A program made the position numbers and the translations under genes. Below the pieces are notes generated by a model, which worked only from the letters and a program-made list of their open reading frames with translations, was not told the origin of the DNA and did no database searches. This document shows positions 801-30,095 of a DNA stretch of 32,000 nucleotides, piece by piece; the stretch's first letter is position 1; every line of letters starts with the position of its first letter. This stretch comes from Chlamydiota bacterium (lineage in GTDB: Bacteria > Auribacterota > JACPWU01): assembly GCA_016196885.1 (NCBI GenBank), contig JACPWU010000011.1, positions 30,001-62,000 on the forward strand, given 5' to 3'.

Positions 801-891
801 CGTCGTTCGTCGTTCGTTGTTCGTATCTCGTCGTTCGCATTCCGTCGTTCGTATTCCGTTTTAACGAACGACGAGATACGAGCGACGAATA
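801..891. repeat. heptamer-word palindrome in the serA-purA spacer
   Basis: Nine tandem CG-initiated 7-mers (cgtcgtt cgtcgtt cgttgtt cgtatct cgtcgtt cgcattc cgtcgtt cgtattc cgtttta) are followed by complementary 7-mers (acgaacg acgagat acgagcg acgaata). A 17-bp stem pairs tcgtatctcgtcgttcg (821-837) with 865-881. On the gene strand the hairpin is followed by T6, which abuts the purA ATG. Confidence 0.8.
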
Positions 892-898
892 ACTGTTT

Positions 899-2494
899 TT
901 AAAGAACGACCATCTTTACATCTAAAACATTCTTAACTTTGGACAACTCGGCCAATAAAGGATCCGCAATCGGGCTGTCCACATTCATCACCGTCACTGC
1001 CCGTCCGCCCGCCACATTGCGTCCGACAGTCATCCCTGCGATATTAATATTGTTCTTGCCCAAAAGCGCAGAAACCCCTGCGACCAAACCGGGCTTATCT
1101 TCATTGGATAAAACGAGCAAATAACCTGAGGGAACGGCATCCACATGGTAACCATTCATGCGAACCACACGGGCATCTTTTTTCATACCAAAAAGCGTTC
1201 CCTCGACAGAATACGCTTGTGGCCCTTCCTTTCCGTTGGTCTGGGTTTCAACTTCAATGAGATCCGCAAAATCTTGGGCGACAGAACTCTTGGACTCCAG
1301 AACTTCAATGCCTCGATTTTTCGCCAAGAAAGGCGCGTTCACAAAATTCACAGACTCCTGCATGGCCCGGCCTAAAATTCCCTTGAGAACACTGAGCGTA
1401 ATCGGTTTGACATCCAAATCAGCCACTTGCCCCGCATATCGAATGGAAACCTTCTTCATCGGGGCAGACACCAGTTGTCCCAAAAGAAGTCCCAACTTCT
1501 GTCCCAAATCTAAATAAGGCCCCAATTGTTTCATCACCTCAGGATCCAAAGTGGGTGCGTTTACAGAATTGATGATGACGCCTTTCTTTAAAGCGTGAAT
1601 CACCTGATGCGCCACCTCAAGTGCCACATTCACCTGGGCCTCTTCTGTCGCCGCCCCCAAATGAGGTGTCGCAATCACACGGTCCAATTCCAAAAGCTTG
1701 CAATCCTTGGGAGGTTCTTCCTCGAAAACATCCAAGGCTGCCCCCGCTACCTTTCCAGACTTGATAAATTCACACAAGGCGGCTTCATCCACCACGCCCC
1801 CTCTGGCACAATTAATGACTCTCACCCCTTTTTTCATTTTTTCAAAAGCGGCGGTACTAACTAATTTTTCTGTCTCCCGCGTGAGAGGGACATGAACCGT
1901 AATATAATCGGCCCGGCGGTAAAGCGTATCTAAATCCACCGCCTCGATATCGTACTTGGCTATTTTTTCCGTAGAAATAAAAGGGTCATAAGCAATCACC
2001 TTCATGTTAAAGGCCAACGCCCTCTTAGAAACTTCTAAACCAATTCGACCCAATCCAACAACCCCCAATGTTTTTCCACACAGTTCAACCCCTGTAAATT
2101 TCTTCCGATCCCATTCTCCCTTTTTCACAGACACGTTGGCTTGAGGAATGTTTCTGGAAAGGGCCATCATCATGGAAAAGGTATGCTCACAAGTTGAAAT
2201 GGTATTCCCGCCCGGCGTATTCATCACCACAATGCCACGCTTTGTCGCAGCCTCCACATCCACATTGTCCACCCCCACACCCGCTCGGGCAATCACCTTT
2301 AGACGAGTGCCTTCCTGAATAATTTTTGCGCTCACGTCCGTCTGACTTCGGACAATGATCGCATCATAATCCTTGATGATCTTGCAAATCTCTTCCTCAG
2401 GAAGTCCCACTTTCACATCCACCTGAAAGTCAGATTCGGCTTTTAAAATATCCAGGCCTTTTGAAGACAAAGAATCTGAGATTAGAATTTTCAT
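899..2494 (-). CDS. serA: D-3-phosphoglycerate dehydrogenase (long form with C-terminal regulatory domain)
   Basis: 531-aa ORF with an ATG start. It has the NAD-binding motif GVVGLGRIG, a 2-hydroxyacid dehydrogenase core, and a C-terminal ACT-like region. Confidence 0.92.
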   Translation of the reverse strand: MKILISDSLSSKGLDILKAESDFQVDVKVGLPEEEICKIIKDYDAIIVRSQTDVSAKIIQEGTRLKVIARAGVGVDNVDVEAATKRGIVVMNTPGGNTISTCEHTFSMMMALSRNIPQANVSVKKGEWDRKKFTGVELCGKTLGVVGLGRIGLEVSKRALAFNMKVIAYDPFISTEKIAKYDIEAVDLDTLYRRADYITVHVPLTRETEKLVSTAAFEKMKKGVRVINCARGGVVDEAALCEFIKSGKVAGAALDVFEEEPPKDCKLLELDRVIATPHLGAATEEAQVNVALEVAHQVIHALKKGVIINSVNAPTLDPEVMKQLGPYLDLGQKLGLLLGQLVSAPMKKVSIRYAGQVADLDVKPITLSVLKGILGRAMQESVNFVNAPFLAKNRGIEVLESKSSVAQDFADLIEVETQTNGKEGPQAYSVEGTLFGMKKDARVVRMNGYHVDAVPSGYLLVLSNEDKPGLVAGVSALLGKNNINIAGMTVGRNVAGGRAVTVMNVDSPIADPLLAELSKVKNVLDVKMVVL

Positions 2495-2512
2495 TTATGA
2501 ATCCCCCTCTAA

Positions 2513-2688
2513 CCCGCATTTCTCATCACATTTCTGCTGCGAGCGTCAAGTCTGCCTCGTCTGCGTCGTCAGACTCGGTCGGCCACGCTCAACATACTGC
2601 AAAGTATGCCTCGCATGGCCTCGGTCGTCTTCCTCGCATCCAAGGCAGACTTGACGCTCTCGCGACGAAATCTGATGAGAAATGCGGG
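2513..2688. repeat. 176-bp imperfect long palindrome with structured centre
   Basis: The left arm (2513-2556, cccgcatttctcatcacatttctgctgcgagcgtcaagtctgcc) pairs with the right arm (2644-2688). There are perfect 16-bp and 14-bp blocks. The centre contains a hairpin catact-GCAA-agtatg at 2593-2608. Confidence 0.75.
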
Positions 2689-2695
2689 CTAAACC

Positions 2696-27748: not shown

Positions 27749-27819
27749 ATAACTCCCCCAACCCCTCTTACCTTAAGAGGGGGGCCCTCCCCTTATTTAA
27801 GGGGAGCTGGAGGGGTTAT
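27749..27819. repeat. TAACTCCCCC-family structured repeat, compact copy (71 bp)
   Basis: The sequence is ataactcccccaacccctcttaccttaagaggggggccctccccttatttaaggggagctggaggggttat. It forms hairpins cccctctta-cct-taagagggg and ctcccctt-attt-aaggggag inside the ataac/gttat termini. Confidence 0.85.
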
Positions 27820-27861
27820 TTTCATCCGCTCAAGTGAATGGAAATTCAATAATGACAAAAA

Positions 27862-29067
27862 CTAGTCTTTAACTTTTTTCCTTAAAGCATCTAACTTTAA
27901 TCTCAACGCATTCAGCCGAATAAAACCGGTTGCATCCTTTTGATCGTAGAGTGAGCCACCCTCGAAGGTTGCGAGGTCCTTCAAATAAAGAGAATTCGGG
28001 GACTTTCGGCCCATCACCCTTGCACTTCCTTTATAGAGCTTTAAGCGAACCACCCCCGTCACATCTTTCTGAGTATCCTCCATCGTTCGATTCAAAAGTC
28101 GCATCTCAGGAGAAAACCAAAATCCATAATACACGAGTTCCGCATAACGTGTGATCAAACTGTCTTTAAAATGCATAACTTCTCGATCGAGCGTCAAACT
28201 TTCCAAAGCCCGATGGGCCATGAGAAGCAACGTGCCACCCGGTGTCTCATAGACTCCGCGAGATTTCATTCCGACAAAGCGATTCTCCACCACGTCCACC
28301 CTGCCCACCCCGTTTCGTCCGGCAAGTTCATTCAAAGTTTTTAAAAGCTCATGAGGTTTCAGAGATTTCCCATTCACTTTAACAGGAGATCCTTGCTTAA
28401 ATTCAATGTCCACCAGCTCTGGTTTATTGGGAGCCTTTTCAGGACTCACCGTCAGTTTAAACATATCTTCCGGCGGACTGGCCCAAGGATCTTCTAAAAT
28501 CCCACCCTCAAAACTGATGTGATACAAATTGCGATCGCTGGAATAGGGCTTCGATTTTGTGACTGGAACCGGGATGCGATGCCTTTGGGCATATTCGATC
28601 AAGTCCGTCCGAGATCTAAAATCCCATTCTCGCCACGGGGCAATGATTTTTAAATTGGGAGAGAGCGCCATGTAAGTGAGTTCAAAGCGCACCTGATCGT
28701 TGCCCTTCCCTGTAGAGCCATGCGCCACATACTGCGCCTTTTCCTTCTTAGCAATTTCGACTTGCTTTTCGGCAATGATCGGTCTTGCAATCGAAGTCCC
28801 CAAAAGATATTGCCCTTCATAAATGGCATTCGCCTTAATCATGGGAAAAATAAATTCTCGAACGAATTCCTCTCTCAGGTCTGAGACAAAAACCTTGCTT
28901 GCCCCTGCCTTAAGCGCCCGCTCTTGGATATTTCCCAATTCATCACCGCCCTGTCCCAGATCGGCAACATAGGCAATGACATTCAGACCTTTTTGATATT
29001 TAAGCCAATGTAGAATAACGGATGTGTCTAAACCTCCAGAATAAGCCAACACTACCTTTTCTGACAT
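27862..29067 (-). CDS. argG: argininosuccinate synthase
   Basis: 401 aa with the AYSGGLDTS motif. It is a full-length type I ArgG. Confidence 0.95.
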
Positions 29068-29086
29068 ACATGCTCCTCTATTAGTA

Positions 29087-29158
29087 CAGAATCCAGAATT
29101 CAGGAGTCAGAATAAATAAGGAACCTTATTCATTCTGACTCCTGAATTCTGGATTCTG
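29087..29158. repeat. perfect 27-bp inverted repeat (near-perfect 35-bp palindrome) in the argF-argG junction
   Basis: cagaatccagaattcaggagtcagaat (29087-29113) is exactly complementary to 29132-29158. An inner pair aataagg/ccttatt extends the stem. The arms are built from 7-mers cagaatc cagaatt caggagt cagaata. Confidence 0.92.
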
Positions 29159-30095
29159 GATTCTGGCTTCTGTTTTCCATTAATTTCACCATCAATGCCT
29201 TTTGAGTATGCAAACGGTTCTCTGCCTGATCGAAAATAATCGAGTGATCGGCGTCCATCACACCCGCGCTGATTTCTTCGCCGCGATGCGCAGGAAGACA
29301 ATGCATCACCAAAACCTCTCTGGGTGCAGCTTTTACCAATGCCTCATTCACCTGATAGCCCGCCAAATCTTTTAAGCGCTTTTCTTTCTCCTTCTCTTGC
29401 CCCATGCTCACCCACACATCGGTATAAATCACATCTGCATCCCGAACTGCAGAAACGGCGTCTTGGGTCGCCTCAAAAAAGCGAGGACCTTCGCAAGAAA
29501 GCTTAACGGCGCTACGAACAGCCTCAGACTTTGGCCAATAGGCAGGAGGCGCCGCAACACTCAATTTCATCCCCATCAGAGCTGCTCCAAAAAGCCACGT
29601 CTGCGCCACATTGTTTGCTCCGTCCCCCACATAAACAACTTTCAATCCCTTCAACTGCTGACGCCTTTCAAAAATCGTAAAAAGATCGCAAATCATTTGA
29701 CAGGGGTGAGTTTCATCGGTGAGGCCATTGATGACGGGAATGGTCGCATGACGGGCAAACTCCTCGACCTCGCGGTGTTCATACGTGCGAATCACCAGGC
29801 TATCTAAATAACGAGAAAGCACCCTGGCCGTATCCTCAAGGGACTCTCCTCTTCCCAATTGAAGATCATCTTCAGAAAGAAAAATGGAACTTCCCCCCAA
29901 CTGTGAAATCCCAACCTCGAAAGAAACCCGCGTGCGCGTCGAAGATTTCTTAAAAATCATTCCCAGCGTTTTTCCAATTAAGAGAGGCTGAATAGGACGC
30001 GCTTTCAACCTCCCAGATAATTCCAGAAGCTCAAGAATCTCTTTCTCGTTCCAGTCTTGAATATCAATAAAATCTTTTTTAACTTGCATCAACAT
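29130..30095 (-). CDS. argF: ornithine carbamoyltransferase
   Basis: 321 aa containing STRTRVSFE, HPCQ and HCLPAHRGEE. The last ~14 codons are encoded by the palindrome arm. Confidence 0.92.
   Translation of the reverse strand: MLMQVKKDFIDIQDWNEKEILELLELSGRLKARPIQPLLIGKTLGMIFKKSSTRTRVSFEVGISQLGGSSIFLSEDDLQLGRGESLEDTARVLSRYLDSLVIRTYEHREVEEFARHATIPVINGLTDETHPCQMICDLFTIFERRQQLKGLKVVYVGDGANNVAQTWLFGAALMGMKLSVAAPPAYWPKSEAVRSAVKLSCEGPRFFEATQDAVSAVRDADVIYTDVWVSMGQEKEKEKRLKDLAGYQVNEALVKAAPREVLVMHCLPAHRGEEISAGVMDADHSIIFDQAENRLHTQKALMVKLMENRSQNPESRIQESE

Follow-up and report, generated by a model that had tools for sequence, protein, structure and literature searches.

Palindromic pairing of heptanucleotide repeats in the intergenic DNA of a Chlamydiota-labelled genome

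Introduction

The STRR sequences of heterocystous cyanobacteria are 7-bp repeats (Mazel et al. 1990, as cited in PMC4692102), and an excess of heptamer simple sequence repeats, also in intergenic DNA, is reported for many genomes of bacteria (Mrazek et al. 2007, as cited in PMC4692102). The bacterial preference for 7-nt intergenic repeats has been little studied since these two reports. The present analysis deals with a 32-kb stretch of a Chlamydiota-labelled metagenome-assembled genome (MAG; assembly GCA_016196885.1, contig JACPWU010000011.1, positions 30,001 to 62,000), hereafter the window, in whose own numbering all positions are given. Many of the spacers between its genes contain tandem arrays of 7-nt units arranged as inverted repeats, which are here called heptamer hairpins; the sequence of a unit is called a word.

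STRR hairpins are found between hupS and hupL, where roles in transcript stability, translational coupling and termination have been proposed (PMC2670836). The window shares with the STRRs the tandem 7-nt intergenic units, the occurrence of several words per genome, the capacity to form hairpins between co-transcribed genes and an unproven function. The strict class, however, belongs to heterocystous cyanobacteria and has few high-copy consensus words (STRR1-3), whereas at least 10 low-copy words are found here in a MAG of another phylum; moreover, 78% of the arrays are paired here, while for Nostoc PCC 7120 no more than a few GGGGA(C/T)T arrays were reported as pairs (PMC4692102). Xanthomonas genomes contain 70-75 convergent (inverted) GGGAATC pairs each, the type of pair being conserved between species while the length varies (Rehm et al. 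2015, PMC4692102). These are likewise intergenic heptamer arrays in inverted pairs with the potential to form stem-loops, and are mostly transcribed, but they consist of a single G-rich word studied for G-quadruplex formation, whereas the words here are many, mostly AT-rich or mixed, and without G-tracts.

Heptamer direct repeats of the word TAACTGA are present in Beggiatoaceae, cyanobacteria and some Bacteroidetes (MacGregor 2015, PMC4679880), and one-sided heptamer runs near start codons in Nostoc (bioRxiv 10.1101/2022.06.06.494920). Both resemble the repeats of the window in their period, their intergenic location, a frequent position near a start codon (here 27661-27693 and 30096-30124) and a patchy occurrence across phyla. 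The TAACTGA sets are one-sided repeats of one word with one inverted case among 170 sets, whereas palindromic pairing is the rule here. REP and BIME sequences (PMC3733652) are also palindromes scattered through intergenic DNA, where they lie at the ends of genes in either orientation, and REPs are thought to stabilise upstream mRNA or to attenuate transcription; they differ in being 20-40 nt long, with one conserved sequence, a GTAG or CGTC tag and no internal tandem periodicity. The heptamer hairpins have neither a shared sequence nor a GTAG/CGTC tag, and the GTAG REP family present in the window is different in sequence.

A sequence-only reading of the window had not recognised the hairpins as a described class of element. 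That they are an undescribed class is not borne out, as intergenic heptamer hairpins have been published both as cyanobacterial STRRs and as the inverted pairs of Xanthomonas. They are therefore of a known but poorly understood kind, found here in a lineage new for it and to an extreme degree, in that they fill about two thirds of the larger spacers with many words, families and pairing registers. Many low-copy word families that share a loop, near-obligate pairing and the suggestion of heptamer-proneness with pairing as a genome trait across phyla go, on a preliminary basis, beyond the literature consulted. We incline, with reservations, to the reading that the elements are STRR-type hairpins made of heptanucleotide microsatellites, grown by slippage, kept palindromic and transcribed as intercistronic stem-loops.

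Periodicity and pairing of the intergenic heptamers

The heptamer hairpins were confirmed as a real and conspicuous feature of the intergenic DNA. The autocorrelation of 5.25 kb of spacer DNA, expressed as the fraction of identical bases and compared with dinucleotide-preserving shuffles, showed an excess at lag 7 (0.308 versus 0.261 +/- 0.007, z = 6.6) with harmonics at lag 14 (z = 4.8) and lag 21 (z = 2.9), whereas the lag-7 identity of coding DNA was 0.243. The arrays reach into open reading frames (ORFs) only at the extreme ends of these. The DNA analysed consisted of the window and of two further pieces of the same genome lying beyond its ends, L001 (4.7 kb) and L009 (9.3 kb), giving 46 kb in total. 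It contains 27 period-7 arrays, those of the AGCGT type being excluded, against 4, 3 and 3 arrays of periods 6, 8 and 9, and the density of period-7 arrays is about 0.7 per kb. A reverse-complement partner within 200 nt was found for 25 of the 32 period-7 arrays (78%), for 2 in the reversed-sequence control and for none of the arrays of other periods.

At each place named in the sequence-only reading, Tandem Repeats Finder (TRF) recovered arrays of period 7 or 14, namely at 801-859, 2699-2828, 4001-4078, 5997-6126, 8079-8153, 17747-17804, 19064-19147, 26228-26315, 27664-27693 and 29142-29172. An inverted-repeat search showed that the arrays form palindromes with arms of 25-46 nt, 74-97% complementary, and the claim of stems reaching 26-27 perfect base pairs was likewise reproduced (27 bp between argF and argG, 26 bp between tRNA-Lys and tRNA-Gly). 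Pairing in several registers, also proposed from the sequence, was found as shifts of 7 or 14 nt at 29087-29165, 813-889 and 19058-19151. The predicted folding energies of the spacers lie 4-12 standard deviations below those of shuffled controls (z -4 to -12).

An origin by chance, composition or faulty assembly would be suggested by the AT-rich, low-complexity nature of the spacers, and has a practically negligible probability. The excess over shuffled DNA (z 6.6) is confined to lag 7 with its harmonics 14 and 21, the folding z descends to -12, and the same sequence is present in NCBI and Logan assemblies. Two contigs of GCA_016178005.1, a MAG from groundwater that NCBI labels "Chlamydiae bacterium", are nearly identical to the window, and the Logan assembly of SRR12113387 matches the window at 100% over 3.2 kb, three elements included. 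Since independent assemblies (NCBI MAG contigs and Logan) carry identical sequence, the heptamer hairpins are not an assembly artefact.

Two generalisations of the sequence-only reading had to be narrowed. Nearly every spacer had been said to contain a heptamer hairpin, which is too strong, as about 11 of the 18 window spacers of at least 50 nt do so, the remaining ones being empty or containing GTAG-type REPs, a 182-nt repeat or members of a family of G-rich palindromes. Each spacer had also been credited with a word of its own; this is true only in part, because AGCGTNC, AAATTCG, CAGAAnn, CGTACAT and GTCGTGA each recur at 2-4 sites as homologous elements. The (GTCGTGA)x4 array at 27664-27691, cited among the examples of the palindromic arrangement, is present; it is not palindromic, has no partner and is located at the 5' end of argH.

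Elements of the window and their gene context

Nearly all genes of the window lie on the minus strand. In the order of transcription they are argD, argF, argG, argH, lysA and what looks like a small toxin-antitoxin pair, then dapA, dapB, an aminotransferase gene, folK, panB, panC, panD and an aspartate dehydrogenase gene, then genes for several proteins with no Pfam match and for two type II secretion pseudopilins, and finally tRNA-Lys, tRNA-Gly, tig, clpP, clpX, a class-V aminotransferase gene (serC-like), serA and purA. The repeat elements are given below; z refers to folding energy against shuffles.

796 to 898, minus strand: hairpin between serA and purA; CGTCGTT/ACGAACG words, TRF array 801-859, arms 813-837/865-889 (92%), second register shifted by 14; minimum free energy -43.5, z -5.7.
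2696 to 2830, minus strand: hairpin between the serC-like class-V aminotransferase gene and serA; AAATTCG/AAATCCG words, T6 at the end, arms 2699-2740/2787-2828 (81% complementary); z -8.1.
3993 to 4080, minus strand: hairpin between clpX and the serC-like gene; AGCGTNC words followed by T5, TRF arrays 4001-4019 and 4056-4078; z -4.4.
5994 to 6129, minus strand: hairpin between tig and clpP; AAATTCG/AAATACG words, no T-run, arms 5994-6038/6085-6129 (45 nt, 82% complementary); z -4.4.
8079 to 8153, minus strand: hairpin between tRNA-Lys and tRNA-Gly (flanking tRNAs 8159-8231 and 7998-8072); ATTTCGG/ATTTTAG words with a 14-nt super-period, no T-run, arms of 32 nt (97%) with a 26-bp perfect run; z -9.6.
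14231 to 14280, minus strand: AGCGTNC family member, short and degenerate, with a stem of 9 bp and a loop of 32 nt; z -1.7.
17746 to 17860, minus strand: degenerate hairpin of AAATGAC words, situated upstream of the gene for aspartate dehydrogenase; arms of 46 nt (74%); z -3.8.
19058 to 19151, minus strand: hairpin between panC and panD; AGCGTNC words, arms of 36 nt (86%), registers shifted by 7 and 14; z -7.9.
26225 to 26315, minus strand: hairpin between argH and lysA; CAGAAGA/TTCTGAC words, arms of 31 nt (81%); z -4.2.
27661 to 27693, minus strand: unpaired (TCACGAC)x4 array; TRF 100% match, 4.3 copies, just upstream of the conserved ArgH N-terminus MWGGRF.
29087 to 29172, minus strand: hairpin between argF and argG; CAGAATC words, 34-bp stem with a 4-nt loop, no T-run, arms of 35 nt (97%) with a 27-bp perfect run, second register shifted by 7; z -9.0.
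30096 to 30124, minus strand: short spacer between argD and argF; A-rich period-7 words AAATGAA AAGTGAA up to the start codon, without a palindrome.
31335 to 31414, minus strand: borderline member between argB and argD; weak period-7 run AAAATGC/ATTTTGA with a 19-nt inverted repeat; z +0.3.

The arms of the elements are 19-45 nt long, with loops of 4-51 nt, and are built of imperfect 7-nt repeats in tandem, often with a super-period of 14 nt. The left arm starts 0-12 nt past the upstream stop codon and the right arm ends 1-30 nt ahead of the next start codon. The 103-nt spacer between serA and purA is wholly filled by its hairpin, which is preceded by an A-run and whose T6 directly abuts the purA ATG; that between panC and panD is preceded by an A-run and followed by TGTTTTT, and has the motif AAATCAATTCCTTATAAACTG in its loop. 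In argF and argH the left arm starts before the stop codon, so that the final 10-14 codons are read from the repeats. The argF stop codon is located inside the stem of the argF-argG hairpin, the C-terminal tail of argF being coded by heptamers (29130-29172), and the C-terminal tail of argH (...RRIQNTEDRRQNK) is repeat-coded because the left arm (26273-26315) falls within the 3' end of the gene. For annotation this means that stop codons are shifted and false N-terminal extensions arise because of the hairpins (argF, argH), which also break assemblies.

The unpaired array at 27661-27693 lies in the argH 5' leader or in an N-terminal extension, and the annotated argH start (27718) is probably 20 codons too far upstream. 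The same 33 nt occur in L009 (2026-2058) at the 5' end of an Asp/Glu-racemase ORF, and in both genes the run is read in the same frame, as SRLTTHDSRQ, directly before the conserved N-terminus. The racemase repeat appears to be translated because no canonical start codon follows the run. Upstream lies another heptamer run (GATGGAT/GATGGAC) in which, as 7 = 1 mod 3, an ATG is available in one frame after the other.

Besides the array at 30096-30124, similar A-rich runs of period 7-8 were noticed at 22665-22699 and 23514-23534 (dapA, dapB and aminotransferase spacers; AAGTTCA AAGATTA). These three spacers are 16-21 nt long, end at the start codon and are without a Shine-Dalgarno sequence. A further explanation can be considered in connection with such runs, namely that the 7-nt units serve as a register for a single-strand-binding protein of the cold-shock (OB-fold) type, which would melt or stabilise the hairpin and so tune read-through or translation. 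CspB reportedly binds heptamer direct repeats with one protein per heptamer and weak sequence specificity (PMC4679880), heptamer runs abut start codons at 30096-30124, 22665-22699 and 27661-27693, and the same placement is found in Beggiatoaceae and Nostoc (PMC4679880; bioRxiv 10.1101/2022.06.06.494920). The words, however, differ widely in composition and have no core, hence no common binding motif, and the arms are base-paired rather than single-stranded in the predicted folds. This explanation is regarded as very improbable.

Word families, relatives and dispersal

At least 10 low-copy words are present in the 46 kb, and several elements belong to families of near-identical copies. The element between clpX and the serC-like gene is 91% identical over 79 nt, loop included, to positions 19078-19153 of the panC-panD element, in inverted orientation. 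The elements flanking the serC-like gene on the serA side and between tig and clpP are 83% identical over 99 nt, and those between argC and argJ and between argJ and argB are 90% identical over 61 nt. Moreover, the AGCGTNC, AGTCCAT and AATTGAT families have a common loop form, AAAT-AA-TCCTT-AAACTG. When metagenomes were scanned for the motif of this loop, AAATCAATTCCTTATAAA(N)CTG, one match came up, in an unrelated GC-rich context without heptamers, which is uninformative.

Three relatives were compared at syntenic loci reached via Tig homologues of 59% (L003), 52% (L005) and 51% (L006) identity. They came from the protein database and exact look-ups; a scan of genome contigs with the Tig protein confirmed no relative. 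The sequence-only reading had asked whether orthologous spacers keep the period while the word changes, and this was observed in the two closest of the three relatives, L003 and L005 (52-59% Tig identity). The lag-7 identity of their spacers is 0.30 and 0.36, respectively, against about 0.25 at lags 6 and 8, whereas the spacers of L006 show no lag-7 excess (0.24). Between serA and purA the words are CGTCGTT here, AGTCCAT in L003 and GGGGATn/AATCACG in L005; between tig and clpP they are AAATTCG here and GGGCTAA in L005. The element is missing between clpX and the aminotransferase gene in L003 and from most spacers of L006, and the AGTCCAT family of the L003 serA-purA spacer matches an element between cdsA and dxr in the genome of the window, a non-orthologous site. 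Between relatives, the period and, in part, the palindromy persist while words and occupancy turn over.

These observations bear on the possibility that the elements are non-autonomous mobile hairpins of MITE or REP type, moved by a transposase encoded in trans, with the heptamer arms as recognition structure or by-product. It would account for near-identical whole-element families at unlinked spacers in both orientations, for a loop motif conserved across word families, for the AGTCCAT family at non-orthologous spacers of two genomes and for presence or absence at orthologous spacers. Families with 83-91% identity are present; neither a target-site duplication nor a conserved terminal motif is visible at the ends of their members. 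The families are, moreover, tiny (2-4 copies in 46 kb) and often occupy neighbouring spacers, which local gene conversion fits too; more than 10 words would require many specificities, and the single chance match of the loop-motif scan was unrelated. We therefore consider mobility by a trans-encoded transposase quite unlikely.

Terminator-like features

A T-run of at least 4 directly follows the right arm, in the direction of the gene, in 10 of 17 elements and is absent in 7, and a mirror A-run upstream of the element is found in about 4 of 17. Both counts were read off the sequences themselves, as an automated count picked inner registers for several elements and was unreliable. The individual T-runs reported earlier were correctly called, being present after serA, clpX and panC and absent between argF and argG and between tig and clpP. 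With Rho-independent terminators the elements share, in about half of the cases, a stem-loop followed by a T-run and sometimes an A-run typical of bidirectional terminators; they differ in stems of 19-45 nt against the usual 5-14, loops of up to 51 nt and low GC, in the half of the elements that have no T-run and in the location of many within operon-like strings.

It could be proposed on these grounds that the elements are simply the intrinsic terminators or attenuators of the lineage, with a long stem and a U-tract, and have been selected as such, the heptamer texture being incidental. The ratio of T-runs to mirror A-runs speaks for this, as do the outer flanks, which often read AAAACAG...CTGTTTTT. 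In addition, conventional short GC-rich terminators are not in excess: a consensus terminator scan of the first 20 kb found 24 against 24.1 expected, and picked none of the heptamer elements. The spacers, however, are T-rich or AT-rich anyway and T-runs are common there. About half of the elements have no T-run (tig-clpP, argF-argG, argC-argJ and the tRNA spacer), one element lies between two tRNA genes and another in a divergent spacer upstream of truA, and in other genomes such elements are not depleted from divergent spacers. Within the arg, pan and ser strings, where there is no room for promoters, efficient termination would silence the downstream genes. The suggestion that some elements are terminators or attenuators is plausible only for the roughly half with a T-run; as an explanation of all of them it is unlikely.

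The one spacer in which a terminator of conventional appearance (AGCAGAGGTGG...CTACTTCTGCT, then a T-run) was noticed is that between rpsI and argC (L009 6400-6440); this terminator follows ribosomal protein genes and adjoins an ATTTTTN period-7 run.

In a search of Rfam 15 at gathering thresholds only three tRNAs passed and the hairpins were unmatched; at E <= 0.5 the hairpins matched only eukaryotic miRNA-precursor models, far under threshold. The earlier statement that a period of 7 with variable words is not explained by ordinary terminators, REPs or CRISPR thus agrees with a terminator scan that picks none of the elements, with GTAG REPs that form a separate family and with the lack of an Rfam family. 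CRISPR was rejected, the units being 7 nt long, contiguous and placed in inverted arms; attC sites and, for the palindromic elements, phase-variation switches were also considered and rejected. A riboswitch or leader of the arg, ser or pan genes was rejected because the same elements adjoin unrelated genes and tRNAs.

Heptamer arrays in other genomes and in viral contigs

At least 120 loci with (AGCGTNN)x4 arrays came to light when one genome per species was scanned. Among the matches listed, the hosts included Anaerolineales, Thermoanaerobaculia, Gemmatimonadota, Kiritimatiellia, Omnitrophota, Planctomycetota, Atribacterota, Parcubacteria, Nitrospirota and Proteobacteria, and at 23 loci an AGCGT array of opposite sense lies within 250 nt, these pairs folding into hairpins like those of the window. 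Among the other arrays in the flanks of these matches (785 kb), 201 have period 7, whereas periods 6 and 8 account for 54 and 73, respectively. The paired share is 30% at period 7, 15% at period 8, 6% at period 6 and 0-3% at periods 9-12. This quick survey suggests that only certain genomes, distributed across many phyla, are prone to heptamers, so that no universal bias is involved, and that among bacteria this trait is accompanied by palindromic pairing.

Controls in viral contigs limit this reading. Arrays of four units with the AGCGT core were found at 98 loci with period 6, 55 with period 7 and 61 with period 8, which led to the rejection of a universal preference for period 7, and viral loci seeded with a period-6 array showed no period-7 excess. 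The idea that pairing is unique to period 7 was dropped as well, viral period-8 arrays being paired equally often.

An 8-kb locus of an unrelated genome (L020, Ca. Sediminicultor tertius UBA9311) has more than 25 period-7 arrays with many words, including complementary pairs such as CTCGTAT / CGAGATA, and looks even richer in heptamers than the genome of the window. An Omnitrophota genome (L027) was heptamer-rich as well.

Proposed origin and role

According to the reading favoured here, that of slippage-grown hairpins of STRR type, slipped-strand replication would lengthen the arms by 7 or 14 nt at a time; slippage and hairpins of this kind have precedents in the literature (PMC4692102, PMC2670836). 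Growth by duplication of units is backed by the 14-nt super-periods of several arrays and by the pairing in multiple registers. Slipping in sevens would be a property of the genome, not tied to any word. Complementarity of the arms may be maintained through correction templated by the hairpin (template switching at quasi-palindromes), through selection for the stem, or through both, and whole hairpins may be copied to other spacers in either orientation by recombination or by some form of mobilisation. Because they lie within operon-like gene strings, with no room for promoters, we infer that the hairpins must be transcribed, and stem-loops of 20-45 bp are predicted in the RNA. About half of them, with a T-run and sometimes a preceding A-run, could act as leaky intrinsic terminators or attenuators. 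The other half could be generic intercistronic hairpins serving as barriers to 3' decay, as processing sites of RNase III type or as couplers of stop and start codons. The 7-nt period would reflect the mode of growth and would not be needed for function.

Several points weigh against this explanation. Slippage alone accounts neither for the value of 7 nor for the pairing. Length variants of +/-7 nt were not seen, the assemblies compared being identical across the elements, and viral contigs pair period-8 arrays as often as period-7 arrays, at about 10% each. Every role at the level of RNA is a proposal. The mismatches in the stems are 13 G:U against 13 A:C on the sense strand, which gives no signature of selection on the sense RNA, and with the two kinds equal in number selection on the mRNA fold is not demonstrated. 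Furthermore, paired arrays elsewhere (among the matches listed, with crude ORF calls) lie in tandem, convergent and divergent spacers in a ratio of 53/13/15, against 220/63/66 for all spacers. As these are the proportions of spacers overall, they fit neutral or selfish DNA better than a dedicated role at 3' ends.

It is tempting to speculate, at a likelihood we rate as low as that of transposase-driven mobility, that a specific process in scattered lineages writes 7-nt-periodic hairpins into spacers, by hairpin-templated repeat synthesis or by hairpin-specific mobilisation, and that in genomes like this one the products, which would then not be ordinary slippage products, became general operon punctuation. 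If so, they would be bidirectional leaky terminators, processing sites or stop/start couplers, and the link across phyla would be the footprint of the process, given that in bacterial loci pairing is much more frequent at period 7 than at other periods and that a genome with one heptamer word has many.

Other repeats and minor observations

GTAG-type REP palindromes (TTGTAGTCGCCCCATTCATGGGGC / GCCCGATGAATCGGGCGACTACAA) form a separate family at 7645-7697, 11163-11230 and 12752-12814. The copies 7648-7694 and 12760-12806 are 100% identical in inverted orientation, and the copy at 11163-11230 is nested in another 23-nt inverted repeat (11115-11137 / 11230-11252). A third kind of intergenic repeat is a G/C-rich composite palindrome (AACCCCTC..CTCCCCTTAAATAAGGGGAG...GAGGGGTTGGGGGAGTTA) with two copies, at 21330-21445 (between folK and the aminotransferase gene) and 27745-27835 (between argG and argH).

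A 182-nt element without heptamers occurs at 2513-2691 of the window and at 5001-5181 of L009, the two copies being 90% identical, with a 25-nt inverted repeat (2541-2565 / 2635-2659). It adjoins a heptamer hairpin at one site and lies upstream of rplM at the other, has no Rfam match and could be a small RNA or a MITE.

The 86 nt at 7536-7621 of the window are missing from the NCBI contig compared with it, and the NCBI assembly breaks in the same region. Nearby, the last 35 nt of tRNA-Gly with its flank (7984-8018) are duplicated about 195 nt downstream (7788-7822), the kind of trace usually left where an element has inserted itself into a tRNA gene. Finally, two small ORFs between lysA and dapA (24402-24967), one of them with a ParE-like toxin domain according to the gene calls of the NCBI contig, resemble a toxin-antitoxin pair set into the string of biosynthetic genes.

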